Positions 7,632 to 32,415 of a stretch of DNA of 64,000 nt are shown here, piece by piece. Within the stretch, counting starts at the first letter, position 1. Every line of letters starts with the position of its first letter. A model generated the notes under the pieces. That model had not been told where the DNA came from and did no database searches. It saw nothing but the letters and a program-made list of their open reading frames with translations. The DNA comes from an uncultured Actinomycetota bacterium (GTDB lineage Bacteria > Actinomycetota > Actinomycetes > Propionibacteriales > Nocardioidaceae): contig CAWAGE010000001.1 of the NCBI GenBank assembly GCA_963781695.1, positions 79,127 to 143,126 on the forward strand, given 5' to 3'. The translations under genes and the position numbers were made by a program.

Positions 7632-8333
7632 TCAGAACAGCATCGGCAGCACCAGCAGCATGGTCGTGGACCAGGTGACGTGGGTCAGCACGGGGGCCAG
7701 CACGCCGCCGGAGGCACGCCGCTCCAGGCCGACGACGAGACCGAGCAGCAGCGCGGCGAACCCGAGCATCACGTTCCCCGTCGCCAGGGTGGCCACGGTG
7801 TAGGCGCCGGCGCTGACCAGGACCGGATGGTGCGGCACGGCGGCGTACAGCGCGCCGCGGAAGAACAGCTCCTCGGCGACGCCGTTGAGCACCGTGATCA
7901 CCACCAGCACCGGGGTCACGCCGGCCGAGGCGTGGTCGAGGACGTGGCTGACCTGCCGGTCCAGGAACGGCACCTCGCGCACCGCGAGCGCGCCCACCAC
8001 GAACGCCCCCGCCAGCACCAGCCCGAGCAGGACGCCGCCGAGCACGGGGCGGCCGAGCTCGTCACGCCCGGGCCGAGCCACCCGGCCCAGGTAGAGCGGT
8101 CCCGACGCGAACGCGCCGACCGTCCACACCGCGGCGAGCAGCAGGGTGGCGCCGTAGAAGGCGGGGTTCCCGGGCTCGATGGCCAGCGACCAGGCCAGCA
8201 CCCCGGCGCCGAGCACGACCACGGCGGCGGTGACGGCCTGCCGGACCCGGAACGGCCGCGGGTCCTGCCGGTGGTTCCGCGGAGCCTTGTCCCACAGCAG
8301 CGTGCGGACGCTGCGCTGGAGCGAGCCGATCAC
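7632..8333 (-). CDS. CPBP/Abi-family intramembrane glutamic endopeptidase
   Basis: AEELFFRG and THVTWS motifs; RBS GGAGG before GTG 8333. Confidence 0.85.
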   Translation of the reverse strand: MIGSLQRSVRTLLWDKAPRNHRQDPRPFRVRQAVTAAVVVLGAGVLAWSLAIEPGNPAFYGATLLLAAVWTVGAFASGPLYLGRVARPGRDELGRPVLGGVLLGLVLAGAFVVGALAVREVPFLDRQVSHVLDHASAGVTPVLVVITVLNGVAEELFFRGALYAAVPHHPVLVSAGAYTVATLATGNVMLGFAALLLGLVVGLERRASGGVLAPVLTHVTWSTTMLLVLPMLF

Positions 8334-8720: not shown

Positions 8721-9305
8721 TCAGCCCCACACCCCGGAGCTGCCGCGGCGGTGGCTACCCACGAGATGGGTGTCCACGATGCCCACCGCCTCCATCAGCG
8801 CGAACATCGTGGTGGGGCCGACGAAGCGGAAGCCGGCGGCGCGCAGCGCCTTCGCCAGCGCCACGGACTCCGGCGAGGACGTCGGCACCTCGTCGGCGGC
8901 TGCCGGGACGGGGGTGCTCGCCGGGCGGAACGACCACACCAGGTCGACGAGGCCGCCGTCGCCTCGCAGCGCGACCGTGGCGCGGGCATTGGCGATCGTG
9001 GCCTCGATCTTGCGCCGGTTCCTGACGATCCCGGCGTCGGCCAGCAGCCGGAGCACGTCGGGCTCGGTGTAGCCGGCCACGGTGTCGGGGTCGAACCCGG
9101 CGAAGGCCGCCCGGAACCCGGGCCGCTTGCGCAGGATCGTGACCCACGACAGCCCGGACTGGAACGCCTCCAGGCTGATCCGCTCGAACATGCCGCGCTC
9201 GTCGCGGACCGGCAGCCCCCACTCGGTGTCGTAGTAGGTCGCCAGCAGCGGGTCGGCAGCCGCCCAGGCCGGGCGCGCCAGCCCGTCTGGTCCGGTCACC
9301 GTCAC
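8721..9305 (-). CDS. tag: DNA-3-methyladenine glycosylase I
   Basis: YYDTEWG, LEAFQSGLSW, IVRNRRKI, FVGPTT. Confidence 0.93.
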   Translation of the reverse strand: MTVTGPDGLARPAWAAADPLLATYYDTEWGLPVRDERGMFERISLEAFQSGLSWVTILRKRPGFRAAFAGFDPDTVAGYTEPDVLRLLADAGIVRNRRKIEATIANARATVALRGDGGLVDLVWSFRPASTPVPAAADEVPTSSPESVALAKALRAAGFRFVGPTTMFALMEAVGIVDTHLVGSHRRGSSGVWG

Positions 9306-10356: not shown

Positions 10357-10749
10357 GTGCCCCGGGTCCGCGAGCTCACCGACGACCTGCTCGCGTTCTG
10401 GCGCGAGCGCCACCTGTGCACGGTGACGACGCTGCGGCGCGACGGCTCGCCGCACGTCGTGCCGATGGGGATCGTGCTGGCGCCCGAGGACGGGCTGGCG
10501 TGGGGGATCACCTCGCGGACGTCGCAGAAGGTGGCGAACCTGCAAGCCGGCACCGACGCCCGGGTGGCGGTCTGCCAGGTCGACGGTCGCCGCTGGTCCA
10601 CCGTCGAGGGGGTCGCCGAGGTCCGCGCCGACGAGGGGTCCGTGCGCGAGGCCGTCGAGCGCTACGCCGGGCGATACCGTCAGCCGCGGGAGAACCCCGA
10701 TCGGGTGGCGCTCCGCATCACGGTCACGTCCGTCATCGGCAACGTCTGA
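10357..10749 (+). CDS. PPOX-class F420-dependent oxidoreductase
   Basis: TLRRDGSPHVVP, QKVANL, WSTVEG; leaderless TAGGCT 6 nt upstream. Confidence 0.85.
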   Translation: MPRVRELTDDLLAFWRERHLCTVTTLRRDGSPHVVPMGIVLAPEDGLAWGITSRTSQKVANLQAGTDARVAVCQVDGRRWSTVEGVAEVRADEGSVREAVERYAGRYRQPRENPDRVALRITVTSVIGNV

Positions 10750-12991: not shown

Positions 12992-14008
12992 TCAGGCTCG
13001 GGCCCGGCCTCCGGGGTCGTCACTCAACCCGACGTCCGCGAGCACCTGCGCCCAGAGCAGCCGGACGTCCCTGTCTGCCGCGCGGGTGGTCGGCAGGTAG
13101 TGCTCGGGCCGGGGTGCGCGGTCGTGCCAGAGCTGTCCGCCACCGGGCGCCGGGGTGGTCGCGGCCAGCCAGACCACGGTGTCGGCGCCCTGCTCGGGCG
13201 AGCGCAGCACCGGGCCGACCAGCCGGTGGAACCCCGGCATCGAGGTCGCGATCCCCGGGGTGTCGGCCCAGCCGGGGTGCATCACGTGCACTGCGACGCC
13301 GTCCGCGGCCCAGCGCTCCTGCATCAGCGGGGTCAGCGACACCTGCATCCGCTTGGTCCGGGCGTAGGCGCGGGTGCCGTCGTAGCCGCCCTGCTCGAAC
13401 TCGGGGTCGGAGACGGGCAGCCGTTGGGTGTACATGCCGCCGGAGGAGACCAGCACCACCCGGGCCCCCTGCGCGGCGGCCAGCAGCGGCCGCAGGCGCT
13501 CGGTCATCAGCACGGGGCCGAGCACGTGGGTCGCCAGGCTCAGCTCGTGCCCGTCGGGGCTCTCGGTCCGCTGCGGCGGCATCACCCCGGCGTTGTGGAC
13601 GAGCACGTCGACCCGGTCCACCGGACGGCCACCGGAGCTGATCCCGGTTCCGCGCAGGGCGTCGGTGAAGGACCGCACCGAGGACAGGTCGGAGAGGTCG
13701 CAGTGGTCCAGGACGAGATCGGCCGCGGGCACCTCCGCGTGGATCGCCGCCACCGCCCGGCGGCCCTTGGCCCGGTCCCGGACGACGAGGTGCACCCGGG
13801 CGCCGAGTCGGGCCAGCCCGGTCGCGGTGGCGAGTCCCAGCCCCGAGCCCGCCCCGGTGACCAGCGCCACCCGGCCAACCAGCGATCCGGGTGCCGGGTC
13901 GTCCTCGTCCCAGCCGCGCCGCCGCAGCCGGTAGCCGACCGCGCTGTAGCCCGGCACCACGGCCCGGTCGAGCGCGGCGTCGAGCAGCCGCCCGAGCCGC
14001 CCGGTCAC
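12992..14008 (-). CDS. SDR-family oxidoreductase (DHRS12-like)
   Basis: TGAGSGLG, HNAG, YARTK, HPGWADTPG. GTG 14008 overlaps the upstream stop; the ORF track over-extends the N-terminus. Confidence 0.85.
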   Translation of the reverse strand: MTGRLGRLLDAALDRAVVPGYSAVGYRLRRRGWDEDDPAPGSLVGRVALVTGAGSGLGLATATGLARLGARVHLVVRDRAKGRRAVAAIHAEVPAADLVLDHCDLSDLSSVRSFTDALRGTGISSGGRPVDRVDVLVHNAGVMPPQRTESPDGHELSLATHVLGPVLMTERLRPLLAAAQGARVVLVSSGGMYTQRLPVSDPEFEQGGYDGTRAYARTKRMQVSLTPLMQERWAADGVAVHVMHPGWADTPGIATSMPGFHRLVGPVLRSPEQGADTVVWLAATTPAPGGGQLWHDRAPRPEHYLPTTRAADRDVRLLWAQVLADVGLSDDPGGRARA

Positions 14009-15279
14009 CCGGTCCTCCCCCGGTCGGCCCCCAGGTCGGCGAGCACCGCGGCCGCGGCCCGGCGTCCCGACACCAGAGCACCCTGGATCGAGCTGGTGTC
14101 GCGGTGGTCGCCGGCGACGTAGACGCGCCCGTCGGTCGCGCCCAGTCGCACCGGGCGGCGGGCAGGGTGCGGCGCGGGCATCCCCGGAAGCGCGCGCGGC
14201 AGCTCGTAGCAGGCCACCGCCTCCCACGAGGAGGTGCTGGTCCGGTGCAGCCGGGCCAGCGCCGACCGCACCTCGGGCCCGTCCGGGGCGGGCACCTCCC
14301 CGCCGTGGACCAGTGAGGTGGCCACCAGCACGCGCCCGTCGGGGGCGTACTCCGGCGCCGCCAGCGAGATCGCGATGGTGTTCGCAACCGGCGACGCATC
14401 CGAGTCCAGGATCAGCGTGCCGCTGCCCCCGGGCAGCTGTGTCGCGGCGTGGTAGACCGTCGTGACGCCGCGAGGCGGCGGTGCGGACTGGTCGCCGGCG
14501 GCGCCTAGGAGGTCGTGCGCGGTCCAGGCGTCGGTGGCCACGACCACGGCTCGGGCGGTCAGGGTCCGGTCCGCGGACTCCACGCGGTCGGGGCGGACCC
14601 GGTGGACCGGGCACGAGAGCCGTACCGTCCCGGTCGGCAGGGGCGCGGCCACCGCCTCGGGCAGCCGCTGCATCCCGCCGGCGGGCACCGTCGAGCGGCC
14701 GCGGACGAACATCCGCATCATCAGGTCGGTGAACCGCCGCGAGCTGGTCATCCCCTGCTCCAGCAGGACACCTGCGAAGAACGGTCGGAGCAGTCCGTTG
14801 ACGACGTCGGGCGGGATCCCGGCGCGCCGCCAGGCCTCCGCCGCGGTCACGTCGGGCCGCCGCTTGAGGGTCGCTGCCGGCTCGGCGACGCAGCGGGCCG
14901 CGTACGCCGCGAACGCGAGCTTGCCGCGCACGCCGCCGACGGGCAGCCGGAGCCCGGCGACGAGACCCCGTGGGTCGGTCAGCGGGTTCGCCAGCCTGAC
15001 CTGCTCGCCGTCGATCTGCAGCACCACCCCGGCGTCGAAGGCCCGCAGCGCCAGGGCGTCGAGGTCGACCACGCGCGGCAGCTCGGGGTAGCCGGTGTTC
15101 AGCACCTGGAAGCCGCGGTCCAGGGTGAACCCGTCGACCCGGTCCGTGCGCACCCGGCCGCCGACGGCGTCGCCGGCCTCGAGCACCGCCACCCGCAGCC
15201 CGGAGGGTGCCAGCGCCCGGGCGCACGCCAGCCCGGCGAGCCCGGCGCCCACCACGACCACGTCGGTCTGCTCGCTCAC
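14005..15279 (-). CDS. flavin-dependent oxidoreductase (amine oxidase / phytoene desaturase-like)
   Basis: VVVVGAGLAGL, VGGRVRTD, LDRGFQV, AGDHRDTSSIQGALVSG. Confidence 0.85.
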   Translation of the reverse strand: MSEQTDVVVVGAGLAGLACARALAPSGLRVAVLEAGDAVGGRVRTDRVDGFTLDRGFQVLNTGYPELPRVVDLDALALRAFDAGVVLQIDGEQVRLANPLTDPRGLVAGLRLPVGGVRGKLAFAAYAARCVAEPAATLKRRPDVTAAEAWRRAGIPPDVVNGLLRPFFAGVLLEQGMTSSRRFTDLMMRMFVRGRSTVPAGGMQRLPEAVAAPLPTGTVRLSCPVHRVRPDRVESADRTLTARAVVVATDAWTAHDLLGAAGDQSAPPPRGVTTVYHAATQLPGGSGTLILDSDASPVANTIAISLAAPEYAPDGRVLVATSLVHGGEVPAPDGPEVRSALARLHRTSTSSWEAVACYELPRALPGMPAPHPARRPVRLGATDGRVYVAGDHRDTSSIQGALVSGRRAAAAVLADLGADRGRTG

Positions 15280-16046
15280 CCGATGTCCTCGGCCGAGGGC
15301 GGCTGGCCGTCGTGCGCCTTGCGGAACAGCGGCGGCAGGTAGCGGATCATCAGCGTGGACCAGGTCAGGTGCGTGAGAAGCGGCGCCTGCAGCCCGCCCG
15401 AGGCGCGCCGCTGCAGGGCGAACAGGCCACCCATGACCGTGGCCGCCAGCACCAGGGACGGGTTCCGGGTGGCCACCGTGGTGGCGACGTAGACGCCGGT
15501 CGAGCCGAGCACCGCCCGGTCGTGGGGCAGCGCGGCGTACATCGCTCCGCGGAAGAAGACCTCCTCGCCCAGCCCGTTCGCGCAGGTGCTGAGCAGCACC
15601 AGCGGGCCGCTGCCCTGCTCCGCGAAGGCCAGCACGCGCCCGATGGCCCGGTCGAGGAACGGGATGCGGCGGGCGACCAGCGCGCAGCCGTAGAAGAACG
15701 TGAAGGCGGCGGCGCCCGTGGCGACCGGGACCACCGCCGGCCGCCGGAGCCGCTGGTCACGGCTCTCGATCCAGCCGAGGTGCAGCGGGCCGGAGAGCAC
15801 GCCGCCGACGACCCAGGTGCCGGCGGTGGCGAGAGTGGTCACGTAGAAGCGGGTGGAGCCGGGACGGGCCGACAGCGAGACGCCGAGCAGTCCGGCGCCG
15901 AGCAGGCTGGTGCCCCCCACGACCCAGCGGCGACGTCGCACGACGGCCGCAGACTCCTGGTGCCGCACCGGCACGACATGCGTGATGGGCATCGGCAACC
16001 AGGCCTCGACCGTCGTCCGCAGCCGGTGCCACGCCCTCTCGCTCAT
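15276..16046 (-). CDS. CPBP/Abi-family intramembrane glutamic endopeptidase (paralog of 7632-8333)
   Basis: GEEVFFRG and THLTWS motifs. Confidence 0.85.
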   Translation of the reverse strand: MSERAWHRLRTTVEAWLPMPITHVVPVRHQESAAVVRRRRWVVGGTSLLGAGLLGVSLSARPGSTRFYVTTLATAGTWVVGGVLSGPLHLGWIESRDQRLRRPAVVPVATGAAAFTFFYGCALVARRIPFLDRAIGRVLAFAEQGSGPLVLLSTCANGLGEEVFFRGAMYAALPHDRAVLGSTGVYVATTVATRNPSLVLAATVMGGLFALQRRASGGLQAPLLTHLTWSTLMIRYLPPLFRKAHDGQPPSAEDIG

Positions 16047-16948
16047 CGCTCGGACCGCTCCGCCGCCTCGTGCTCCCGCAGGGCCAGCCGCACCGCCTCG
16101 TCGTACCCCATCGGCTCGAACGGCACCAGCTGCCGGATGCGGTCGTCGCTGACCACGACCTCGTTGGACATCGAGTCGATGAGCGACCGGCCGGCCTGGG
16201 TGTCCACGTCGGTGACCAGGCTGAGCCAGCGCGCCGAGAGCCGGGGGGTGAGCAGCGGGACGGGCACGATCACCAGTCGGCGCCCCTTGATCCGCGCCAC
16301 CCGCTCGAGCATGGAGGTGTACTTCAGCACCTCGGTCCCACCGACCTCGTAGACCTGGCCGAGGGCCTCGGTGCGGCCCAGCACCCCGACGAGGTAGCGG
16401 ACCACGTCGTCGACGGCGATCGGCTGGGTTCGGGTCCGCACCCAGCGGGGACAGATCATGGCGGGCAGGTGCTCGACGAGCTGACGGGTGATCTCCCAGG
16501 AGATGCCGCCCGCGCCGACCAGGATCGCGGCCCGCAGCACGGTGACGGGCACGCCGTCCTGGCCCAGCAGGGCCTCCACCTCCCGACGGCTGCGCAGGTG
16601 ACGGGACAGGTCGTCGCTCTCGCTGCCCAGCCCGCCGAGGTAGACGATCTGCTCCAGGCCCGCCTCCGCCGCCGCCCGGGAGAAGGCCTGCGCGGCCTCA
16701 CGGTCCAGCCGCTCGAAGTCCTTCGAGCCCAGGGCGTGGACGAGGTAGTACGCGGCACCGCAGCCGGCCAGCGCCTCCGTCAGCGTGGCGGGGTCGTTCA
16801 CGTCGCCGTACACCGCCGTGCCGGCCCCCTCGTAGGTGTCCGGGTGACGCGTCATGGCGCGCACCTCGTGACCGGCCTCGGTCAGGGCGGCGCACAGCCG
16901 GCCACCGACGAAGCCGGACGCGCCGGCGACCAGCACGGGACGGTTCAC
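16043..16948 (-). CDS. NAD(P)-binding protein, YbjT-like extended SDR
   Basis: VLVAGASGFVG, YYLVH, SRHLRSR, QPIAVDDV. GTG 16948 overlaps the FHA-gene stop. Confidence 0.85.
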   Translation of the reverse strand: MNRPVLVAGASGFVGGRLCAALTEAGHEVRAMTRHPDTYEGAGTAVYGDVNDPATLTEALAGCGAAYYLVHALGSKDFERLDREAAQAFSRAAAEAGLEQIVYLGGLGSESDDLSRHLRSRREVEALLGQDGVPVTVLRAAILVGAGGISWEITRQLVEHLPAMICPRWVRTRTQPIAVDDVVRYLVGVLGRTEALGQVYEVGGTEVLKYTSMLERVARIKGRRLVIVPVPLLTPRLSARWLSLVTDVDTQAGRSLIDSMSNEVVVSDDRIRQLVPFEPMGYDEAVRLALREHEAAERSER

Positions 16949-17841
16949 GGGCTCTCCTCGGGTCTGCCCGCCGCCGAGGTGGACCACGACGACCGGGACG
17001 GGCGGGGCGGCTGCGGCCGCTGCCGACCCAGCTCGCCCCCGACACGACCGCCGAAGGGACGGCCGTGGTCTGCATACTCCTCGCGGAAGAAGCTCATCGT
17101 CCAGGACCCCAGCTGCACGCGGGAGGCCGTCCGCAGCAGCGCGGTCTCCACCGGGCCGCCGTTGACCCTCGTGTCGCCGACCCGGCTCATGCGCTCCAGC
17201 ACGAACTCGTCCTGCTCGTCGTGGACGACCCGCGCGTGCAGCTCCTCCAGGCCAGGGAGCCGGATGTCGCACTCGACTCCGCTGCCGATCGTGATGACCT
17301 CCCCTCGCAGCGCGAACACCTCCTGGGTGTCGCCGGGCCAGGGGTCCGGTCGTGGCGCCATCACCAGGCGGGGGTTCCCGCCGCGGTTCGGGTCATGCGT
17401 CGTGGTCACGGCCCGCGGACGGCGCAGCAGCGTGGGCAGCGGCGGCCAGAGCGTCGGCGGGGGGGCGAGCCCTGCGGCAGGGAGGGCACCGGCCGTCGCC
17501 CGTGCCCTCCCCCGGGCCAGCGCCCACAGTCCCCCCACGCGCTCGACGCGGATGTGGCGTGACCCAGTCACCCGGCGCTGCCACCAGGGGCAGCGCCGGG
17601 CACCGAGGGTGACCGCGGGGCCGGAGGGCAGAACCAGCCGCACGGTCACGTCATGCGCGGCCAGGACGGCAGCCAGCTGGCGCACCATCCCCGTGTCGCT
17701 TCGGCCGGCCAGCAGCCCGGGGTCGCTCACCTCGAGGTCGAGGGCGCTCTCCGAGCCGCTGAGCCGGCCCTCCACGGTCTCTCCACCCGCCAGAGAGACC
17801 GTGAAGGAGAGGTCGGCCGCGACGACCGTCTCGAGCGACAT
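16945..17841 (-). CDS. FHA-like domain protein with an uncharacterised N-terminal domain
   Basis: C-terminal ITIGS..CDIRL..LHARV..TRVNG..LRTASRVQLG FHA pattern. Confidence 0.75.
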   Translation of the reverse strand: MSLETVVAADLSFTVSLAGGETVEGRLSGSESALDLEVSDPGLLAGRSDTGMVRQLAAVLAAHDVTVRLVLPSGPAVTLGARRCPWWQRRVTGSRHIRVERVGGLWALARGRARATAGALPAAGLAPPPTLWPPLPTLLRRPRAVTTTHDPNRGGNPRLVMAPRPDPWPGDTQEVFALRGEVITIGSGVECDIRLPGLEELHARVVHDEQDEFVLERMSRVGDTRVNGGPVETALLRTASRVQLGSWTMSFFREEYADHGRPFGGRVGGELGRQRPQPPRPSRSSWSTSAAGRPEESP

Positions 17842-17844
17842 GAC

Positions 17845-18081
17845 TCACTCCCCCGCGGGGGTGGAGGCGTTGTCGCGCGTCGTCACCTGGAGCGTGCCGT
17901 TGAGCTTCCAGGTGGCGCGCGGCGCCTCTGCGCCGGTGTCGCGGGGAACCTCGACGGCCATGTCGATGAACCGGTAGTTGATGGCGGCCTGGCGCCCGGT
18001 CAGGAACGACCACATCTCGCGGCCGAGGTCGGTCCAGTCCACGACCTCGTCGGTGCGGTGCTGCAGGGGTGTCTCGCTCAT
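17845..18081 (-). CDS. small hypothetical protein (78 aa), first gene of the operon
   Basis: RBS GAGAGG before ATG 18081; protein-like sequence WTDLGREMWSFLTGR..WKLNGTLQVTT; 3-nt gap to the next gene. Confidence 0.75.
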   Translation of the reverse strand: MSETPLQHRTDEVVDWTDLGREMWSFLTGRQAAINYRFIDMAVEVPRDTGAEAPRATWKLNGTLQVTTRDNASTPAGE

Positions 18082-18110
18082 CGGTTGCCCTCTCTCGGAT
18101 TGGCTGTAAT

Positions 18111-18147
18111 ACCTAGACGCTAGCCTATACATGCTGTGTAGGTCTAC
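18111..18147. promoter_or_regulatory. putative operator of the MerR-DICT regulator
   Basis: AT-rich intergenic with dyad CCTATACA-TGC-TGTGTAGG (18124-18142, 7/8 match) flanked by TAGAC (18114) and GTCTA (18142). Confidence 0.55.
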
Positions 18148-18156
18148 CCTCCTTCT

Positions 18157-19053
18157 GTGACCTTCACCGCTGCGGACGACGATCTGCCCGAGGGCTGGCT
18201 CTCCATCGGCGAGCTCGCCGAGCGCACCGGCCTCGAGCCGGGCACACTGCGTGCCTGGGAGACCCGGCACGGCTTCCCGGCGCCCCGCCGGCTGGCCAGC
18301 GGCCACCGGCGCTACGACGAGCGGGACGTCGCTCGGATCCGCCGGGTGCTGTCGCGCCGCGACGCCGGCGTCCGGCTGTCGACCGCGATCGCCGAGGTGT
18401 CCGGCGCCGCGCCCTGGCACACCCCGACCGAGTCGGTCTTCGCCGAGCTGCGACGACGCCACCCGCTGCTCGTGCCGCAGTCGCTGCAGAAGTCCACGCT
18501 GCTGGCCCTCACCTGGGCCATCGAGGACGAGTGCTGCACCACCCCGTCACGGCCCACCCTCTTCGCGGCGTTCCAGGAGGAGCGGCACTACGTGCGAGCG
18601 CAGGCCCGGTGGAACGAGCTGGCCCGGACCGCGCTGCGGGCGGTGGTCTTCGCCGACTTCGGGGCACCGCTGGCAGCGGCGCCCCAGGGGGCCACCCAAG
18701 GGGCCGTGAGGGTGCACCTGCCGGCAGGGACGCCGATGCGACGGGAGTGGTCGCTGGTGTGCTGGTCGCAGGAGCGGGCGGCGGCCCTGGCCGCGTGGGA
18801 GCTGCCCGGTCAGGCCGGGACCCCCGACCGGGAGCGGATCTTCGAGGCGATGTGGACCGTCGACCGGCCCGAGGTGCTCGACGCCGCCCGTGCGTGCGCG
18901 AGCCTCGCGGGACGGTTCGCGCCCGACCTCCTCGACGGCTTCCCCGAGCTCGACGAGGCACCACGAGCACCGGGCATCGACGACGCGGCCGACGCCACGG
19001 CGTTGTTCAACCGCGTCCTGACCTACCTCGACCGGGGTCGTCGTGCCCGGTAG
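18157..19053 (+). CDS. MerR (CarH/LitR-type HTH) regulator fused to a DICT sensory domain
   Basis: LRAWETRHGFPAPRR..GHRRY head; C-terminal KSTLLALTWAIEDE, AAFQ..H, REWSLV, EAMWT DICT pattern. Confidence 0.85.
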   Translation: MTFTAADDDLPEGWLSIGELAERTGLEPGTLRAWETRHGFPAPRRLASGHRRYDERDVARIRRVLSRRDAGVRLSTAIAEVSGAAPWHTPTESVFAELRRRHPLLVPQSLQKSTLLALTWAIEDECCTTPSRPTLFAAFQEERHYVRAQARWNELARTALRAVVFADFGAPLAAAPQGATQGAVRVHLPAGTPMRREWSLVCWSQERAAALAAWELPGQAGTPDRERIFEAMWTVDRPEVLDAARACASLAGRFAPDLLDGFPELDEAPRAPGIDDAADATALFNRVLTYLDRGRRAR

Positions 19054-19085: not shown

Positions 19086-19298
19086 TCAGCTGGCAGCCTC
19101 GTCCACCCCGGCACCGACCAGGACCGGCGCCGACGCCGACGTGTGCTCGCACACCAGCCGACGCACCGAGAAGACACAGGTCCCGCAGTCCTGGCCAGCT
19201 CCGGTGGACCGGCACACCGCCGCCAGCGACCGGGACCCGGACTCGACCGCCGCGGCCACCTGAGCGTCGCTCACCACGCGACAGTGGCAGATGATCAC
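19086..19298 (-). CDS. bfd: BFD-like (2Fe-2S) ferredoxin
   Basis: MIICHC..GAGQDCGTC; RBS AGGGAG before GTG 19298. Confidence 0.88.
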   Translation of the reverse strand: MIICHCRVVSDAQVAAAVESGSRSLAAVCRSTGAGQDCGTCVFSVRRLVCEHTSASAPVLVGAGVDEAAS

Positions 19299-22875: not shown

Positions 22876-23628
22876 TCAGCCCGCCCCGAACGCGTGACTG
22901 ACCCGCTGCATGGTCGCCACCAGCCTGGCGTCCCGGCTGCCCCGGAACCGCTCCGCCGGGCCCGACAGCGACATCGCGGCCAGCACCCGGCCTCCTGCCC
23001 GGACCGGGACCGCGACGCAGCGCACCCCGAGCTCCTGCTCCTCCTCGTCGCCGGCCCACCCCCGCGCGCGCACCAGCTCGACCTCGACGAGCAGGGTCTG
23101 CGCGTCGGTCACCGTGGCGGGCGTACGCCGTGGCAGGCCCACCCGGGCGAGCAGCGCGGCGGCGCGCCCACGGGGCAGGTCGCTGAGCAGCACCTTGCCG
23201 ACGGCGGTGGAGTGCACCGGCACGTGCGCCCCCACCTCGGCGAACATCCGCAACGTGTAGGGCGAGGGCACCTGGGCGACGTAGACGGCCTCGTCGCCCT
23301 CCAGCACGGCCAGGTTGGCGGTCTCACCGCAGGCCTCGACGAGCTCGGTGAGGAACGGACGGGCCTGGAGTGCCAGCGCGCGGTGCGCGCCGTCGGAGAG
23401 CCGGGCCGCCGCGGTGCCCAGCGAGTACTTCCTGGAGGCGTCCCGACGGACGTACCCGCGCAGCTGCAGCGCCCGCAGCAGCCGGTGGGCAGTGCCCTGA
23501 GGCAGCCCGGTCTGGCCGGCCAGCTCACCCACACCGACGGGCCCCTCGGACGTGGCGAGCGCCTCGAGCAGCGAGAGGGCGCGGTCCACCGACTGCACCG
23601 CTCCCGCCGTCCGAGGCGCTCCGGTCAT
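22876..23628 (-). CDS. IclR-family transcriptional regulator
   Basis: VQSVDRAL, TAHRLL, HSTAVGK, DEEEQELGVRCVA. Confidence 0.9.
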   Translation of the reverse strand: MTGAPRTAGAVQSVDRALSLLEALATSEGPVGVGELAGQTGLPQGTAHRLLRALQLRGYVRRDASRKYSLGTAAARLSDGAHRALALQARPFLTELVEACGETANLAVLEGDEAVYVAQVPSPYTLRMFAEVGAHVPVHSTAVGKVLLSDLPRGRAAALLARVGLPRRTPATVTDAQTLLVEVELVRARGWAGDEEEQELGVRCVAVPVRAGGRVLAAMSLSGPAERFRGSRDARLVATMQRVSHAFGAG

Positions 23629-23636
23629 CGTCGTCC

Positions 23637-25385
23637 CTACGGGACCATCCAGCTCAGCACCGGCGTCGACTGCAGCCCCACGAGCAAGCACATGAACACC
23701 AGCATGCCCAGGCTCCACCCGATCACCTTGCGGAACAGGTCGCCCTCTCGGCCGGCCATCCCGACCGCGGCGGCGGCGATCGCCAGGTTCTGCGGGCTCA
23801 CCATCTTGCCCAGCACACCACCGGAGGAGTTCGCGGCCGCCATCAGCAGCGGGTCGAGCCCGGCCTTGCTCGCGGTCTGCACCTGGAGTGCCCCGAACAG
23901 CGCGTTGGCGGAGGTGTCGGACCCGGTGACCGCGACGCCGAGCCACCCGAGGATCGGGGAGAGCACCGCGAAGGCGGCTCCGGTCCCGGCGAGCCACGCC
24001 CCCAGCGAGCTGGTCTGCCCGGACAGGTTCATCACGAAGGCCAGCGCCAGCACCGCCATCACGGTGACGATGGCAAAGCGCAGCTCGCGGTAGGTGGCTG
24101 CGTAGCTCTTCAGCATCTGGGCGGGCGACACCTTGAGGATCAGGGCCGTGATGATGCCGGAGAAGATCATCAGCGTCCCGGCGGCGGCGAACCAGTTGAA
24201 GTTGAAGGTGGTCGTGGACACCGGGTCGCCGGCGGCGTTCAGGACGTCGAGCCCCGGCCACGCGAAGGAGACCGCGAGCGGCGACTGCGAGAGGAGCTCC
24301 TTGACCGAGGCGATGTTGGTGATGGAGAAGATCGCGATGATCACCAGGTACGGCGCGTAGGCCTTCGCGACCTCGACCGTGCTGTCGTGCTGCACCGCGA
24401 CGGCGCCGGCCGGCGCCGGCCGCGCGGCCGTCCCCGACCCGGCCACGACGTCGCGCCCGGGGCCACCTGCCCGGCCGGCCCCGCGGTCGGCCCCGCGGTC
24501 GTGCCCGGGCTCCTCGGCGTGGTCGGAGGCGTGCATCGTCTCGCTCGGGCTCCAGCCCCGCAGCAGCAGCACGACCGCGGCGGCGGACGCCAGCGACGCC
24601 ACGATGTCGGCCAGCGGCACCGAGATGTAGTTGGCGGCCACGAACTGGGCCACCCCGAAGGTGACGCCGACCACCAGCGCCGGCAGCCAGGTCTGCTTGA
24701 CGCCGCGCTTGCCGTCGACGATGAACACCAGCACCAGCGGGACGACGACCGCCAGGATGGGCGTCTGCCGGCCGACCATCGCGCCGAGGGTGGGCACGTC
24801 CAGGCGGGGGTCGCTGCTGGCGCCCGACGCCACCGCGCCGAGGGTCACGATCGGGGTGGCCAACGCACCGAACGCCACCGGTGCCGTGTTCGCGACCAGC
24901 GCCACGGTGGCCGCCTTGATCGGCGCGAAGCCGAGCGCCAGCAGCATGACCACGGTGATCGCCACCGGCGTGCCGAACCCGGCCAGCGCCTCGAGCAGCG
25001 CGCCGAAGCAGAAGGCGATGATGATGGCCTGGATCCGCTGGTCGGGGCTGACCTTCTCGAAGGACCGCCGCAGCACGTCGAAGTGCCCGGACGCGACCGT
25101 CAGGTTGTAGACCCAGATCGCGTTGATGACGATCCACAGGATCGGGAAGAAGCCGAACGCCGCACCCTCGGTGCCGGCCAGCACGGCCTGGCCCACCGGC
25201 ATGCCGAACAGCACGACGGCCACCAGCAGCGACACCAGGAGCGAGATCAGGCCCGCGATCCAGGCGGCCACCCGCAGGGCGCCGAGCAGGACGAAGAGCG
25301 TGAGCAGGGGGACGGCGGCGACCAGCGCGCTGAGCGCCAACGACCCGCCGACCGGGTCGAGGCTCTGTTGGAACTGCGAGAACAT
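23637..25385 (-). CDS. lctP: L-lactate/glycolate permease (LctP/GlcA family)
   Basis: EALAGFGTP, NTAPVAFG, TGSDTSANALF, GKMVSPQ. Confidence 0.9.
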   Translation of the reverse strand: MFSQFQQSLDPVGGSLALSALVAAVPLLTLFVLLGALRVAAWIAGLISLLVSLLVAVVLFGMPVGQAVLAGTEGAAFGFFPILWIVINAIWVYNLTVASGHFDVLRRSFEKVSPDQRIQAIIIAFCFGALLEALAGFGTPVAITVVMLLALGFAPIKAATVALVANTAPVAFGALATPIVTLGAVASGASSDPRLDVPTLGAMVGRQTPILAVVVPLVLVFIVDGKRGVKQTWLPALVVGVTFGVAQFVAANYISVPLADIVASLASAAAVVLLLRGWSPSETMHASDHAEEPGHDRGADRGAGRAGGPGRDVVAGSGTAARPAPAGAVAVQHDSTVEVAKAYAPYLVIIAIFSITNIASVKELLSQSPLAVSFAWPGLDVLNAAGDPVSTTTFNFNWFAAAGTLMIFSGIITALILKVSPAQMLKSYAATYRELRFAIVTVMAVLALAFVMNLSGQTSSLGAWLAGTGAAFAVLSPILGWLGVAVTGSDTSANALFGALQVQTASKAGLDPLLMAAANSSGGVLGKMVSPQNLAIAAAAVGMAGREGDLFRKVIGWSLGMLVFMCLLVGLQSTPVLSWMVP

Positions 25386-25419
25386 GACGGCTTCTTCCTT
25401 CGAGCGGAGAGGGGACTGA

Positions 25420-26823
25420 TCAGGCGGGGTCGAGCGCGGAGCCGGGCAGGCCGCGGATGGAGGCGTCGAGGACCTCGATGGTGTGGGCCATGCCCATGGG
25501 GTGACCGGACCGCTGGATCGCGGAGGTCACCTGCATCAGGCACCCGGGGTTGGCGGTGACCAGCACCTTCGCCCCGGTGGCGACGATGTTCGCCGCCTTG
25601 CGGTCCCCCAGCTCACGGGCAGGCACCGGGTTGAGGATGTTGTAGATGCCGGCGGACCCGCAGCACAGCTCGGGCTCGGCGATCTCCTTCAGCTCCAGCC
25701 CCGGGATGGCGGTGAGCAGCCGCCGCGGCTGCGCCCGCACCCCCTGGGCGTGGGCCAGGTGGCAGGCGTCGTGGTAGGCGACGGTCGTCTCGAGCGGGTG
25801 CCGGACCGCTACCGGGCCCAGCTCGTCGAGGATCTCCGAGACGTCACGGACCCGCTCGCTGAAGCTCCTGGCACGCTCGGCGTACGCCGGGTCGTCGGCC
25901 AGCAGCACGGCGTACTCCTTCATGGTGGAGCCGCAGCCGGCCGCGTTGACCACGACCCAGTCGACCCCGGCCGCCTCGAACGTGTCGACGATCCCCCGGG
26001 CGAACTGCTGGGCCTCCTGCTCGCGCCCGTTGTGCGTGGACAGCGCCCCGCAGCAACCCTGCCGCCGTGGCGTGACCACGTCGCAGCCCTCGGCCTGCAG
26101 CACCCTGGCGGTGGCGGCGTTCACTCCGGGGAAGAACGCTCCCTGGACGCACCCGGTGAGCAGCCCGACCACGGCTCGGCGCTGGCCCGTGGCGGGCACT
26201 CGCTCCGGGATCGGCTCGGGCCGGTCGAGCCGCGGTGCGAGGCTCTCCATCGCGGCCAGCTGCGGGGACAGCCGCTCCAGCAGCCCGGTCCGTCGCAGCG
26301 CCCGGTCCAGGCCGGTGCGCTGCACTGCGCGCAGCGGCCCGCGCAGCAGCCGGAGCCGTCGGGGGTGCGGGAACAGCGAGAAGATCAGCGCACGCAGCGC
26401 CCGGTCGGAGGGCTCCCGGTCGTGGCGCCGCTCCACCTGCGCACGGGTCTGCTCGATGAGCCGGTCGTACTGCACCCCGGACGGGCACGCGGTGACGCAG
26501 GCCATGCAGCCCAGACAGGCGTCGAAGTGGGAGACCATCGAGTCGGTCATCGGCTCGCCCTCGAGCCCCTCCTTCATGAGGTAGATCCGACCGCGCGGGG
26601 AGTCCATCTCCTCGCCCCACAGCACGTACGTCGGGCAGGTGGGCAGGCAGAAGCCGCAGTGCACGCAGTCGCCGATGAGCGCCGCGTCCGGCGGGTGGTG
26701 CTCGTCGAAGGCGCCGCCGGCCACGGGCATCCCGAGGTCGATGATGCTGCCGGTCTCACCGAGGGCCGCGCCCGCGTCGGCCTCCTCGGCGGACCGGTCG
26801 GGGGTGCTGGTCGGGGTGCTCAT
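25420..26823 (-). CDS. glcF: glycolate oxidase Fe-S subunit
   Basis: CVHCGFCLPTCPT, DSPRGRI, CLGCMACVTACPSGV, two CCG domains. Confidence 0.88.
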   Translation of the reverse strand: MSTPTSTPDRSAEEADAGAALGETGSIIDLGMPVAGGAFDEHHPPDAALIGDCVHCGFCLPTCPTYVLWGEEMDSPRGRIYLMKEGLEGEPMTDSMVSHFDACLGCMACVTACPSGVQYDRLIEQTRAQVERRHDREPSDRALRALIFSLFPHPRRLRLLRGPLRAVQRTGLDRALRRTGLLERLSPQLAAMESLAPRLDRPEPIPERVPATGQRRAVVGLLTGCVQGAFFPGVNAATARVLQAEGCDVVTPRRQGCCGALSTHNGREQEAQQFARGIVDTFEAAGVDWVVVNAAGCGSTMKEYAVLLADDPAYAERARSFSERVRDVSEILDELGPVAVRHPLETTVAYHDACHLAHAQGVRAQPRRLLTAIPGLELKEIAEPELCCGSAGIYNILNPVPARELGDRKAANIVATGAKVLVTANPGCLMQVTSAIQRSGHPMGMAHTIEVLDASIRGLPGSALDPA

Positions 26824-28127
26824 CAGATTCCTCCCACGAAGCGGCCCGGCGAGAGCCGGTGGTCCGGGTCGAACTGGTCCTTGACGCGGCGCATCAGGTC
26901 GAGCGCGGGCACCGGGCCCCACAGGTCCACGGCCTGCTTCACCGCCGGTGGCGCGTCCACGACGACCGCGTGGCCCTCGTGCCGGCGGGCGGCGGCCCGC
27001 AGCCGGTGGACGGCCGTGACCACCTCCTCGGTCGGCATCCCGGCGGGCAGCGCCGCATGCACGACCCCGCTCCCGGCCGAGCCGCGCACGTGCGCGCCGA
27101 CCGAGCCGGCGACGCCCAGCACGTGGGCCAGCCCCGACAGCACGAAGGTGAGCCTCAGGCCGGTGTCGCGCTCGCCGTCCCGGCCGAACGGGTACGCCCC
27201 CCACCCCTCGGGCGCGGTCTCGCCCACGGCAACGGTGTCGCTGCCGGTCGCGGCGGCGCCGAGCAGCGTGGCGAGGGTTCTCGCGCGCCCGTCGACGGCG
27301 TCCTGGCGGCCCTCGAGCAGCACGCTCACCGAGCCGCTGACCGAGTCGGCTCCCCGGCCGGCTGCCGGACGGCCACCGACCACCGGCCACTCGACCTCGA
27401 CGGCGCCGGGCACCACCTGGGAGTGCACCGCCGCCTGGACGACGGCGGCAGCCCGGTCCGGGCCGCCGACCTCGACGGTGACCCAGCGCCGCGCCTGCGG
27501 CAGCGGGTGCAGCCGGAACAGCGCCTCGGTGACCACGGCCAGGGTGCCGGCCGAGCCGATCAGCAGCTTGCCCAGGTCGTAGCCGGCCACGTTCTTCACC
27601 ACGCGGCCGCCGGCCTTGGCCACCACGCCGTCGGCGCGGACGACGGTGAGCCCGATCAACAGGTCCCGCGCGGTCCCGGCTGTCAGCCGGGCCGGTCCCG
27701 AGGCGTTGGCGGCCAGCGTCCCGCCGACGCTGGCCCCGGGCACCGTCTCGTCGAGGTGCAGCCGCTGGCCCCCGCGGGCGACGACGTCTTGGAGGTCGCG
27801 CAGACGGGTGCCTGCCTGCGTGGCCACGATCAGGTCACCGGCGGCATGCTCGAGGACCTGGTCCATCGCGGACAGGTCGACGACGAGGTCGGCCGAGCGC
27901 GGCGGCATCCCCCACGACAGCTTGGTGCCGTGACCTCGCGGCACCACGGTGAGCCCGTGGCCGGCAGCGGCCCGCAGCACCTCGGCGACCTGCTCGGTGG
28001 TGGCGGGCCTGGCCACGACGGCCGGGGCGACGCCGTCGACCAGGTCCGACTCGCCGGCGTCGCGGACGTCGGCGCAGGCCGAGCCGACGGCCTCGCGGGC
28101 CGAGGTCGAGACGGTGGTGGTGCTCAT
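26823..28127 (-). CDS. glcE: glycolate oxidase FAD-binding subunit
   Basis: HAAGDL, GGRVVKNVAGYDL, VKDQFDP; lies between glcD and glcF. Confidence 0.88.
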   Translation of the reverse strand: MSTTTVSTSAREAVGSACADVRDAGESDLVDGVAPAVVARPATTEQVAEVLRAAAGHGLTVVPRGHGTKLSWGMPPRSADLVVDLSAMDQVLEHAAGDLIVATQAGTRLRDLQDVVARGGQRLHLDETVPGASVGGTLAANASGPARLTAGTARDLLIGLTVVRADGVVAKAGGRVVKNVAGYDLGKLLIGSAGTLAVVTEALFRLHPLPQARRWVTVEVGGPDRAAAVVQAAVHSQVVPGAVEVEWPVVGGRPAAGRGADSVSGSVSVLLEGRQDAVDGRARTLATLLGAAATGSDTVAVGETAPEGWGAYPFGRDGERDTGLRLTFVLSGLAHVLGVAGSVGAHVRGSAGSGVVHAALPAGMPTEEVVTAVHRLRAAARRHEGHAVVVDAPPAVKQAVDLWGPVPALDLMRRVKDQFDPDHRLSPGRFVGGI

Positions 28128-29668
28128 CAGAACACCTCCGCCAGGCCGGCTTCCTGCAGCGGGTGGGCCCCCTGGTGCCGACCCGGCACCTCACCGCACA
28201 GCCGTGGGGTCGGGAACACCTTGCCGGGGTTCGAGAGGTGGCGCGGGTCGAAGGCGCACCGGACCAGCTGCATGGTGTCGAGATCCTCCTCGCTGTACAT
28301 GCGCGGCATGTACTTCGCCTTGTCCATGCCGACCCCGTGCTCGCCGGTGATCGACCCGCCGTGCTCGATGCAGAGGTCGAGGATCGCGCCGCTGACCCTC
28401 TCGGCGGCCTCCCCCTCGCCCTCCTTGGAGTCGTCGAAGAGCACCAGCGGGTGCAGGTTGCCGTCGCCCGCGTGGAACACGTTGGCGACCCGCACCCCGG
28501 ACGTCCCGGACAGCTCCGCGATCGCGGTCAGCACCTCGGGCAGCGCGGTCCGCGGGATCACGCCGTCCTGGACGATGTAGTCGGGGCTGATCCGGCCCAC
28601 CGCGGCGAACGCGGACTTGCGGCCCTTCCAGATCAGCGCACGCTCGGTCGGGTCGGTGGCCAGCCGCAGCTCGAAGGAGCCGTTCTCCCGGCACAGCCGC
28701 TCGACCTCGTCGTACTCCGCGGCCACCTCGGCGGCCGCGCCGTCGAGCTCGATGACCAGGACGGCGCCGGCTCCCTGGGGGTAGCCGCACTGCACCGCGG
28801 CCTCGGCGGCCTCGATGGCCAGGGCGTCCATCATCTCGATGGCGGCCGGGACGATGCCGGCGGCGATGATCGCCGAGGTGGCCGCTCCGGCCTGGTCCGT
28901 GCTCGCGAAGCCCACGAGCAGGGTGCGGACCTCCTCCGGGAGGCGGGTCAGCCGGACGGTGACGCTGGTCACCACCCCAAGGGTCCCCTCCGAGCCCACC
29001 ACGGCGCCGAGCAGGTCGTAGCCGGGGGCGTCCGGGGCCGCGCCGCCGAGCTGGACGACGTCTCCCTGCGGGCTGACGAACTCGGCACCGAGGACGTGGT
29101 TGGTGGTGAAGCCGTACTTCAGGCAGTGCGCGCCGCCGGAGTTCTCCGCGACGTTCCCGCCGATCGAGCAGATCTGCTGGCTGGAGGGGTCCGGCGCGTA
29201 GTAGTAGCCCTGTGGCGCGACCGCCTTGGTCACGTCGAGGTTGATGACCCCGGGCTCGACCACCGCGCGCTGGTCCTCGATCCGCACCTGGCGGATGGCG
29301 CGCATCCGCGAGGTGACCACGAGCACGCCCTCGGCGTGCGGGAGGGCACCGCCCGAGAGCCCCGTCCCGGCTCCACGGGCGACGAACGGGACGCCGTGCT
29401 CGGCACAGGCCCGGACGACGGCTGCCAGCTGGCGGGTGTCCTCGGGCAGCACGACGAGGGCCGGGGTCACCCGGTAGTGGGCCAGCCCGTCGCACTCGTA
29501 CGTGCGCAGCCGGGTGTGGTCGTCGATCACACCTGCCGCCGGGAGCAGCTCCCGGGCGAGGGCGGCCACGGCCGCGATCCCCGGCGCCGTGCCGACGGCC
29601 GCGGTAGTCGTCGGGCTGCTCGTCGGGGCGGTCGTGCCGCGTGCCTCGGGCTGCCGGTCGGTGACCAT
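28127..29668 (-). CDS. glcD: glycolate oxidase subunit GlcD (FAD-linked oxidase)
   Basis: YECDG, PDPSSQQICSIGGN, HCLKYG, HAGDGNLHP, GEHGVG. Confidence 0.9.
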   Translation of the reverse strand: MVTDRQPEARGTTAPTSSPTTTAAVGTAPGIAAVAALARELLPAAGVIDDHTRLRTYECDGLAHYRVTPALVVLPEDTRQLAAVVRACAEHGVPFVARGAGTGLSGGALPHAEGVLVVTSRMRAIRQVRIEDQRAVVEPGVINLDVTKAVAPQGYYYAPDPSSQQICSIGGNVAENSGGAHCLKYGFTTNHVLGAEFVSPQGDVVQLGGAAPDAPGYDLLGAVVGSEGTLGVVTSVTVRLTRLPEEVRTLLVGFASTDQAGAATSAIIAAGIVPAAIEMMDALAIEAAEAAVQCGYPQGAGAVLVIELDGAAAEVAAEYDEVERLCRENGSFELRLATDPTERALIWKGRKSAFAAVGRISPDYIVQDGVIPRTALPEVLTAIAELSGTSGVRVANVFHAGDGNLHPLVLFDDSKEGEGEAAERVSGAILDLCIEHGGSITGEHGVGMDKAKYMPRMYSEEDLDTMQLVRCAFDPRHLSNPGKVFPTPRLCGEVPGRHQGAHPLQEAGLAEVF

Positions 29669-29693
29669 GCCGAGCGCCTCACTTTCGTCCACA

Positions 29694-29708
29694 TTCCACA
29701 TGGCAGAA
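29694..29708. promoter_or_regulatory. putative IclR operator upstream of glcD
   Basis: TTCCACATGGCAGAA matches the TTC-N9-GAA dyads upstream of glcB. Confidence 0.55.
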
Positions 29709-29790
29709 GAAGATTTCCGCAACCGCACCTTAGGGTGTGCTCCGCGTCACCTCCAAACCGGTGCGTGCCGGAGCGACCCGTCGTCCCGGC

Positions 29791-30219
29791 TCAGTCGGGC
29801 TGGGCGACCAGCCCGGCGCGCCCGATCCCCGCGACGGCGGCCGCCTCGTCGTTGTCCGAGGTGTCCCCGGTGACGCCGACCGCACCCAGCAGGGCGCCGT
29901 CCGCGTCGCGGACCAGCACCCCTCCGGGCACCGGGACCAGCGACCCGCCGACGGCCGAGGTCACCGCGGCGACGAAGTACGGCTGCTGCTCGGCGCGGGC
30001 CATGATCGAGCGCGACCCCATCCCCAGCGACAGGGCCCCGGACGCCTTGCCGACGGCGATCTCGAACCGGCTCATCGACGACCCGTCCTCGCGCTCGGCG
30101 GCCACGACGTGGCCTCCCGGGTCGAGGACGACCACGGTCAGCGGCTTCAGGCCCGCGTCGGCCGCGTGCTCGCGGGCACCGGCGACGATGCTCCGGGCGG
30201 TGTCCAGGTCGATGCTCAT
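29791..30219 (-). CDS. glcG: GlcG/HbpS-family heme-binding protein
   Basis: VVLDPGGH, IAVGKA, GGVLV..GAVGVTG; ATG overlaps the glcB stop. Confidence 0.88.
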   Translation of the reverse strand: MSIDLDTARSIVAGAREHAADAGLKPLTVVVLDPGGHVVAAEREDGSSMSRFEIAVGKASGALSLGMGSRSIMARAEQQPYFVAAVTSAVGGSLVPVPGGVLVRDADGALLGAVGVTGDTSDNDEAAAVAGIGRAGLVAQPD

Positions 30220-32396: not shown

Positions 32397-32415
32397 GCCA
32401 GTCCCTTGCATCGAA

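Follow-up and report, generated by a model that had tools for sequence, protein, structure and literature searches.

A predicted CarH-type regulator with a DICT sensor domain and the modular operon that it faces

Can the DNA-binding head of the cobalamin (B12)-dependent photoreceptors CarH and LitR be driven by a sensor of another kind, and, if so, is light still the signal? This question is raised by a locus at positions 12992–19053 of a 64,000-nucleotide stretch of contig CAWAGE010000001.1 (hereafter, the window), which comes from an uncultured soil member of the Nocardioidaceae. In this locus, the gene for a regulator with a MerR-type helix-turn-helix (HTH) and a DICT domain faces six genes on the opposite strand. 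The original prediction, made from the letters of the sequence, took the locus for a light or photo-oxidative stress system with a new sensing chemistry. Our analysis instead favors, with somewhat better than even confidence, a one-component, autoregulated switch that belongs to the LitR/CarH lineage but carries a DICT-type sensor where the cobalamin module would be. Nothing so far shows light as the signal or an unusual chemistry.

The regulator's head and its sensor module

We observed that the HTH region follows the pattern W-E-x-R-(Y/H)-G-x-P...R...G-x-R-x-Y of the CarH/CarA subfamily, as judged by profile and NCBIfam results. A family profile built from 31 members matched CarA (2jml, 5.7e-14), TtCarH (5c8d, 1.8e-13) and TtLitR (3whp, 2e-13) in the PDB, whereas the next MerR protein in the same search, TipA, followed only at 3.9e-7. 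The NCBIfam ranking likewise placed CarH first and MlrA second (1e-9). In a full-length AlphaFold2 model (mean predicted local distance difference test score, pLDDT, 87), the winged HTH is followed by a 9-residue helix (residues 74–82), a disordered, low-confidence linker (residues 85–89) and then a compact alpha/beta domain with helices. The long antiparallel coiled coil of MerR proteins is absent from this model, which has only helix 74–82, and the nine best Foldseek matches of the full-length model were all to TtCarH. By sequence and profile, the head belongs to the CarH/CarA/LitR subfamily.

What stands in the place of the cobalamin-binding domain? The Pfam match to DICT is strong (E=8e-18; 65 bits compared with a cut-off of 23.8) and covers 127 of the 129 model positions, and DICT was called likewise in all listed homologues. 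No Pfam match to the B12-binding domains PF02310 and PF02607 was found in the regulator. A model of the sensor alone (residues 90–298; pLDDT 89, predicted template-modeling score, pTM, 0.86) returned neither CarH nor any cobalamin-binding fold in the PDB fold search, and the long CarH alignments of the full-length model, with a template-modeling score (TM) of ~0.25, rest on the head. A divergent B12-binding domain was rejected on these grounds. Since there is no B12 match by sequence or fold, the modeled DICT module is a replacement for the B12 module and not a disguised version of it; the regulator is therefore not a class I LitR member. Two claims of the original prediction are thus borne out: the head does carry the CarH/LitR signature, and a DICT domain, confirmed by its hidden Markov model, replaces the cobalamin-binding domain.

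The DICT domain continues into a C-terminal helical extension, for which the Pfam match to CHASE6_C is weak (E=3.7e-4, below the cut-off), although the same match is precomputed for several homologues too; its helices 237–254 and 274–297 are seen in both the full-length and the sensor-only models. Across 94 cluster representatives with 35–57% identity, A121, E123, D124, E125, F139, Q140, R151, W152, E197, W198 and R286 are each kept in at least 96%, with E215 at 93% and W233 at 91%. This acidic, aromatic and arginine-containing set would fit a binding pocket or an interface. The cysteines behave differently in near and distant relatives: among 31 close relatives, C127 and C202 never vary and C247 hardly does, but the 94 representatives retain C127 in 34, C202 in 64 and C247 in 33 cases. 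Their loss beyond close relatives argues against thiol or metal-cluster sensing, which we rejected as the mechanism of the family.

Within 784 cluster representatives (E<=1e-3), the sensor module is nearly confined to proteins of ~290 aa, starting near residue 80–100, which indicates a DICT subfamily dedicated to this type of regulator. DICT has been predicted, but never shown, to relate to light (PMC8612252), and our search of the DICT literature returned only passing mentions that repeat this predicted relation. PDB sequence-profile and fold searches found no solved DICT structure. The sole structural neighbors of the sensor model (window positions 18424–19050) above noise are PLD-fold modules, all weak, namely, the N-terminal domain of SauUSI (the best, E=5e-3, TM 0.42), PPK (polyphosphate kinase), Tdp1 and NgoAVII. 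DICT may be a non-catalytic PLD-like fold, with the HKD motif absent.

The operator and the divergent operon

Where would such a regulator bind? Relatives occur in 472 species in a family scan that took a single genome for each species, and the locus counts given below refer to the best 80 loci, nearly all of them from Nocardioidaceae or allied metagenome-assembled genomes (MAGs); individual loci are named by L numbers where they need to be told apart. More distant named carriers belong to Thermoleophilaceae/Solirubrobacterales, Pimelobacter, Marmoricola and Nocardioides. The intergenic region between the regulator and the first gene of the operon measures 75 bp, and most of it is filled by a predicted operator, an inverted repeat with the family consensus CCTnAACA-N3-TGTTnAGG, the half-site centers of which lie 11 bp apart. 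The position-wise information content of 47 aligned intergenic regions points to an extra half-site (consensus TTnAACAC) that repeats the left half-site in direct orientation ~12 bp upstream and is weaker in the window. The three half-sites are thus spaced about one helical turn apart. CarH operators have an 11-bp register in the TtCarH–DNA structure, which the spacing found here recalls, but the orientation differs.

The dyad ends 2 bp before a conserved -10-like hexamer, TAnnnT, which lies 6–7 nt before the regulator start and keeps its position and spacing in the aligned loci. A hexamer so close to the start codon implies a leaderless mRNA and an operator-overlapping promoter, and we predict both for the regulator. 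No convincing -35 element lies at 17–20 bp in the window, and an alternative reading with 20 bp is found in the family consensus only.

Does the operator serve the facing genes? In related loci, it occurs once per locus, upstream of the regulator, and the motif is retained even in the distant members Pimelobacter simplex, Nocardioides sp. MH1 and L087. A weight matrix built from 61 sites found no other site of at least 12 bits in the 64-kb window. In 1.34 Mb of related loci, strong extra operators lie directly upstream of two relocated genes for the FAD-dependent amine-oxidase/desaturase-family oxidoreductase (AOX) of the operon, in L042 (32.5 bits) and L062 (21.5 bits), where the AOX gene sits on the far side of the regulator; the remaining strong extra sites, in two loci, duplicate the operator at the start of the regulator itself. 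Because the operator is conserved in the shared region and travels with the relocated AOX gene, the regulator very probably controls the facing genes. The operator upstream of the moved AOX gene would also place AOX in the regulon, even though that gene is optional.

Two further features were seen near the operator of related loci. A second operator, ~33 bp downstream of the first and overlapping the regulator start, is found at L034:8922-8973, L067:8922-8973 and L046:2494-2544; the regulator of L034 and that of L067 are each followed by a co-oriented AOX gene. The regulator's 5' coding region in related loci (for example, L009 at ~9020–9030 and L036 at ~9035), though not in the window, holds a motif (C/A)GCAA(G/C), usually TGCGCAAG. 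It lies at 42–45 nt (mostly 44) from the right half-site in ~50 of 73 loci, and another six have it at 35 nt. The motif uses the rare Gln codon CAA in host genomes with ~95% third-position G+C. Because the N-terminal peptide around it is otherwise variable, this suggests a constraint on the motif at the DNA or RNA level.

Which of the six genes form a unit with the regulator? In the window, the junctions consist of a 3-nt gap between the small-protein and FHA-like genes (17842–17844) and four 4-bp start/stop overlaps (16945–16948, 16043–16046, 15276–15279 and 14005–14008), from which we take the six minus-strand genes at 12992–18081 to be translationally coupled. We scored the presence of the six proteins across the 80 loci by tblastn, with identity as the median against the window protein; some loci are cut by contig ends, so the presence counts are lower bounds. 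The regulator is found in 80 of 80 loci (median identity 53%), the small protein in 73 (84%) and the FHA protein in 72 (56%), and the pair formed by the last two is divergent from the regulator in every case. The remaining genes are less frequent: the NAD(P)-binding gene in 44 loci (75%), always paired with CPBP, the CPBP gene itself in 41 (70%), AOX in 22 (58%) and the short-chain dehydrogenase/reductase (SDR) gene in 19 (61%). All six genes occur together in 12 of the 80 loci, small protein and FHA alone in 25, and these two with the NAD-binding and CPBP genes in 20. The small and FHA proteins are the constant partners, and NAD-binding plus CPBP, AOX and SDR are optional modules. The divergent layout and the tight coupling described by the original prediction are reproduced exactly by the gene calls, and its domain assignments for the operon products hold by Pfam, with the FHA call resting on the family-level profile. 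Its six-gene redox/membrane operon, in contrast, stands as a coupled set in the window but not as a conserved unit, only the small and FHA genes being near-constant.

The small protein is the more conserved of the two partners. A core of ~55 aa, DWTDLGREMWSFLTGR.AAINY.F.DM.VE.PRDTG..APRATW.L.GTLQ.T, is almost invariant; all 1496 homologues are annotated as 'hypothetical', and the 78-aa protein has no match in Pfam (E<=10), NCBIfam or, by sequence and profile, the PDB. A Shine–Dalgarno-like sequence, GAGAGAGGG, precedes its gene. In the FHA protein, an N-terminal region of ~170 aa without an assigned domain is followed by an FHA domain at residues ~174–253. The window protein falls just below the Pfam FHA threshold (20.1 compared with 20.7 bits); for the family, the call is secure, with OdhI/GarA reached by the profile at E=2e-8 and 20 of 22 members recognized by Pfam FHA. 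The domain keeps the fold markers G, H and NG, but the phosphothreonine-contacting Arg (GR to GS) and Ser (SxxH) are absent in the OdhI alignment, the family having TIGS...LPGL..xHA. After the FHA domain, in the last 50 codons of the gene (window positions 16945–17100), a C-terminal motif, REEYADHGRP(Y/F)GGRxGGExG(H/R)QRPQ, is invariant in 62 of 62 homologues and better conserved than the FHA domain itself; we know of no described counterpart. By sequence, the small and FHA proteins look like protein-interaction components and not like enzymes.

The optional genes belong to broad families of enzymes or membrane proteins, and no substrate is fixed by the closest relatives that are solved or curated (monoamine and putrescine oxidases, HpnE/CrtI-like proteins, PRK06197-type SDR and NDUFA9/NmrA-like proteins). 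The NAD-binding protein matches Pfam NAD_binding_10 at 7e-17, and its best PDB relatives are atypical SDR/epimerase and NDUFA9-like proteins. The CPBP protein matches the Pfam Rce1-like family at 1e-9 (39 bits compared with a cut-off of 22.4), with the motif GEEVFFRG, of the EExxxR type, kept in 40 homologues. AOX matches Pfam Amino_oxidase at 4e-46; its NCBIfam matches, to HpnE and the CrtI family, are weak and lie far below the cut-offs. SDR matches Pfam adh_short at 1e-22 and NCBIfam PRK06197 at 6e-43, the latter below its cut-off.

In P. simplex, Nocardioides sp. MH1 and Nocardioides silvaticus (L033), the operon starts with a protein of 92–99 aa that resembles sigma-70 region 2, lacks region 4 and replaces or accompanies the small and FHA proteins; NAD-binding and CPBP, or AOX and SDR, come after it. 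The genes of this type lie at L088:7670-7948 (-), L085:9642-9941 (-), L033:8662-8955 (-) and L081:7362-7763 (-). In L081, a MAG, the protein is encoded in the divergent operon, and only in the other three loci is it the first gene.

The coordinates of the locus are collected in Table 1. The window has a G+C content of ~74%; coding frames were assigned from third-position G+C, and starts by a scan of each frame. A public gene call made independently on an identical contig agrees in the gene lengths.

Table 1. The regulator, its predicted operator and the facing operon, in window coordinates.
Feature	Positions	Strand	Description
SDR, operon gene 6	12992-14008	-	338 aa; PRK06197/PRK05854 type, with N-terminal extension of ~45 aa
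AOX, operon gene 5	14005-15279	-	424 aa; FAD-dependent amine-oxidase/desaturase-family oxidoreductase
CPBP, operon gene 4	15276-16046	-	256 aa; Rce1-like intramembrane protease family
NAD(P)-binding, operon gene 3	16043-16948	-	301 aa; NmrA/NAD_binding_10 type
FHA-like, operon gene 2	16945-17841	-	298 aa
Small protein, operon gene 1	17845-18081	-	78 aa
Extra half-site (predicted)	18113-18120		CTAGACGC; upstream of the operator
Operator (predicted)	18124-18142		Inverted repeat CCTATACA-TGC-TGTGTAGG, 8-3-8
-10-like hexamer	18145-18150	+	TACCCT (family TAnnnT), 6 nt before regulator GTG at 18157
Regulator	18157-19053	+	298 aa, GTG start; MerR-type HTH, linker, DICT, C-terminal helices
HTH region	18202-18384	+	Residues 16-76; motif LRAWETRHGFPAPRRLASGHRRY; Pfam MerR_1 3.5e-14
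DICT sensor domain	18433-18801	+	Residues 93-215; Pfam PF10069
C-terminal helical extension	18826-19038	+	Residues 224-294; contains W233 and R286

The mode of action and the signal

How might the switch work? Starting from the architecture, the operator and the linkage established above, we infer repression, oligomerization and a signal. Two or more subunits would sit on the operator, joined through their sensor domains as in CarH, and the bound oligomer would block the divergent promoter as well as the promoter of the regulator itself, which is probably leaderless. A signal could be received in a pocket lined by E123, D124, E125, F139, Q140, R151, W152, E197, W198 and R286, together with E215 and W233, and would change oligomerization or the geometry of the heads, so that the DNA is released and the operon derepressed. 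The core output would be the 78-aa protein and a phospho-independent FHA adaptor, probably a pair for protein–protein signaling or feedback, and the optional cargo may point to the repair or remodeling of membrane-associated or redox-active compounds. Of the candidate signals, we put a small ligand or cofactor ahead of a light or photo-oxidative cue, and a partner protein last.

Three observations weigh against this scheme. First, no sigma-70-type promoter was detectable, and the promoter positions follow from conservation alone; the scan for E. coli-type promoters and terminators was empty, as expected at this G+C content. Second, the operator of the window scores 16 bits compared with a family median of 31. 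Third, a few family members (L086, L069, L080 and L082) have unrelated neighbors, and the regulon is therefore not fixed.

Could light nevertheless be the signal? The DICT regulator might itself be a B12-independent photoreceptor, or a direct sensor of singlet oxygen or photo-oxidation, with the operon as a light-stress regulon. We consider this unlikely, although it fares best among the alternatives. The head is of the CarH/CarA/LitR type, a subfamily whose characterized members are mostly light-linked, and the characterized non-B12 LitR classes II and III are light-linked too (PMC9758184). The sensor also offers two invariant tryptophans and a third at 91%, paired with invariant Arg and Glu, and, by analogy, the flavin oxidoreductase-family desaturase UfaD of Rhodobacter lies within a singlet-oxygen-linked operon (PMC7380195). 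However, the CFA-synthase and UfaO partners of the furan fatty acid pathway are missing from the operon studied here. Databases already label the family 'DICT sensory domain-containing protein', and IMG and KEGG-based pipelines tag some members 'light-induced transcriptional regulator', but the latter labels derive from HTH similarity and not from experiments. Furthermore, the sensor has no recognizable chromophore-binding motif, and the PDB fold search returned no photoreceptor structure above noise (RsLOV only at E=0.33, probability 0.08).

The neighborhood speaks in the same direction. We clustered the neighbors of the 80 loci, across ~9 kb, profiled the recurrent families and found nothing light-related: no photolyase, carotenoid, LOV, BLUF or B12 gene is among the recurrent families, nor among the profiled window genes at 0–32 kb. 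The survey for photolyase and carotenoid genes that the original prediction had proposed thus came out negative and, with no chromophore motif either, its light or photo-oxidative system with a new sensing chemistry is neither supported nor refuted.

Beyond the operon modules, no neighbor family occurs in more than 15 loci. The recurrent ones are a PNPOx-like protein (15 loci), a 5'-3' exonuclease, a Tag glycosylase, an amidase and an ABC ATPase, and the window at 0–32 kb is otherwise ordinary metabolism (MMPL, LarA, a second CPBP, Tag glycosylase, FGE-sulfatase, PNPOx-like, GH31, Fer2_BFD, amidase, 5'-3' exonuclease, GNAT, IclR, lactate permease, a GlcDEF-like oxidase and malate synthase G). 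The second CPBP/Rce1-like gene lies 7 kb from the operon CPBP with the gene for Tag (3-methyladenine glycosylase) adjoining it (7632–8333 and 8721–9305, both -); a Tag gene is near the cluster in 7 related loci too. The PNPOx-like gene (FMN-binding split-barrel, 130 aa, 10357–10749, +) lies beyond the far end of the operon on the opposite strand, and its presence at a comparable position in 15 related loci makes it the commonest neighbor outside the six operon genes. The SDR gene converges on a GH31 gene, the end of which is at 12972. On the other side, a 70-aa BFD-like [2Fe-2S] ferredoxin gene (19086–19298, -), convergent with the regulator and 32 nt past its stop, is followed by the amidase; it is found only in near-identical contigs of the window and is not family-conserved. 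The minus-strand genes at 22876–32411 (IclR, lactate permease, a GlcF-like Fe-S/CCG protein, two GlcE/GlcD-like FAD-linked oxidase subunits and malate synthase G) have the composition of a typical glycolate/lactate utilization cluster. Two other origins were rejected: an anti-phage defense system, since PADLOC was negative and only a generic MerR-HTH (mad1) and a generic desaturase model matched, and a mobile or plasmid origin, for which there was no plasmid match. Public sequencing runs that hold the sequence number four or five, all of soil-metagenome DNA, with no RNA run among them.

Alternatively, the regulator could be the effector only, with the true sensor being a partner, the 78-aa protein and/or the FHA protein, that releases the regulator from DNA. 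The two partners are its constant neighbors, and the small protein has diverged far less than the regulator (84% compared with 53% median identity), a pattern typical of several fixed interaction surfaces. An FHA domain without phosphothreonine-binding residues, followed by an invariant Arg/Gly-rich C-terminal peptide, and an acidic patch on the sensor (E123-D124-E125 and E197 invariant, E215 at 93%) would suit such contacts. PmlR2, which works with PmSB-LOV, provides a precedent (PMC9758184), and MlrA with DgcM/PdeR a possible parallel. On the other hand, the partners are encoded within the regulated operon, which fits feedback better than primary sensing, and neither is present in P. simplex, Nocardioides sp. 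MH1 and L033, where the DICT pocket residues are nonetheless conserved. We therefore regard sensing by a partner as rather improbable.

The partners would have another part to play if DICT were a new sensor of light or photo-oxidation that defines a further LitR class, with the small and FHA proteins as its signaling partners; we give this only a slim chance. Such a sensor could hold a bound chromophore or work as a UVR8-like Trp/Arg-Glu switch. By analogy with UVR8, W152, W198 and W233, with R151, R286, E197 and E215, are a possible set of residues for a chromophore-free switch.

Finally, a canonical MerR-type activator that responds to thiol oxidation or a metal through C126/C127, C202 and C247 and distorts the DNA of a promoter with sub-optimal spacing is very unlikely, even though those cysteines are kept among close relatives, redox enzymes are among the cargo genes and the family consensus allows a TTGAAC...TAGGTT pair, spaced by 20 bp, to be placed around the operator, because the cysteines vary across the 94 representatives, the putative -35 is degenerate in the window (CTAGAC), the model lacks the long antiparallel coiled coil needed for MerR-type distortion and the head groups with CarH/CarA and not with SoxR, CueR or MerR.

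Significance and comparison with known systems

The autoregulated switch with a DICT-type sensor remains our preferred reading. Judged by the literature that could be searched, the novelty lies in the operator, the modular regulon, the constant pair of small and FHA proteins and a sensor fold unrelated to the B12 module. DICT is an input domain in many bacterial signaling proteins, and the family described here gives a clean, testable entry to its function: it is the simplest DICT read-out, with one protein, one predicted 19-bp operator and one divergent operon, and cultured carriers exist (Nocardioides, Marmoricola and Pimelobacter simplex). DICT also lengthens the list of sensor modules found on the CarH/LitR head, and the locus reveals a family of 78-aa proteins (~1500 sequences) that is far more conserved than its regulator and undescribed in domain libraries.

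The nature of the signal matters in either case. If it is light or singlet oxygen, the regulator would represent a new photosensory mechanism, and a light-sensing DICT would assign a function to orphan DICT domains everywhere, among them those of cyanobacterial and actinobacterial diguanylate cyclases and histidine kinases. If it is not light, light regulation could not safely be predicted from a CarH-type head, a point of importance for automatic annotation.

How does the regulator compare with its relatives? The closest are CarH and the class I LitR proteins (TtCarH 5C8D, Myxococcus CarH/CarA and Streptomyces LitR), AdoB12 photoreceptor repressors of the same winged-HTH subfamily. As in these proteins, a flexible linker, instead of the MerR coiled coil, joins the head to a C-terminal module for sensing and oligomerization, and the predicted operator has half-sites ~11–12 bp apart and overlaps the promoter. 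In contrast, neither profile nor fold reveals the B12-binding_2 four-helix bundle or the Rossmann B12 domain, and the domain order is an alpha/beta sensor followed by helices. The operator here combines an inverted repeat with one direct copy, whereas that of CarH has three direct repeats, and no carotenoid, photolyase or LitS-type family is among the recurrent neighbors. The sigma-region-2-like gene beside some of the regulators recalls the LitR–LitS pairing of Streptomyces, but the protein found here is truncated.

Takano and colleagues recognize LitR classes II–V, which lack functional B12 binding; classes IV and V are unassigned in function, and class V is reported mainly from Micrococcales (PMC9758184). 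Like the MerR-DICT regulator, these classes combine a CarH-type head with a divergent, non-B12 C-terminus. Class II (PplR1/PmlR2 of Pseudomonas) keeps the four-helix bundle and acts through an adjacent short-LOV protein, whereas the protein described here has DICT, and class III (Burkholderia) shows a light-dependent spectral change of its own. Both classes lie beside genes of the phrB/folE/cfa type, whereas the MerR-DICT regulator lies beside the small and FHA genes. The named MerR-DICT members come from Nocardioidaceae and Thermoleophilia, whereas class V is reported mainly from Micrococcales, and the equivalence of the two is not established. MlrA of E. coli likewise has a CarH-like head without B12; it works without light, and its activity is set by partner proteins. 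However, its C-terminal domain is a relic of the B12 domain and not DICT, it activates csgD, and it is not divergent from its targets. MerR, CueR, SoxR and BmrR are further removed, having after the wing the long antiparallel coiled coil that the model of the regulator lacks.

The partners and the sensor can also be compared with known proteins. GarA and OdhI, FHA regulators of actinobacteria, are the best solved relatives of the operon's FHA domain (E=2e-8), but the operon protein lacks the phosphothreonine-binding Arg and Ser and the N-terminal phospho-acceptor motif ETTS, and it adds the ~170-aa N-terminal region and the invariant C-terminal motif. As for DICT (PF10069) itself, it is likewise an input domain in diguanylate cyclases, phosphodiesterases, STAS proteins and histidine kinases, where it is N-terminal or central; here, it is fused to a DNA-binding head and carries a CHASE6_C-like helical extension.

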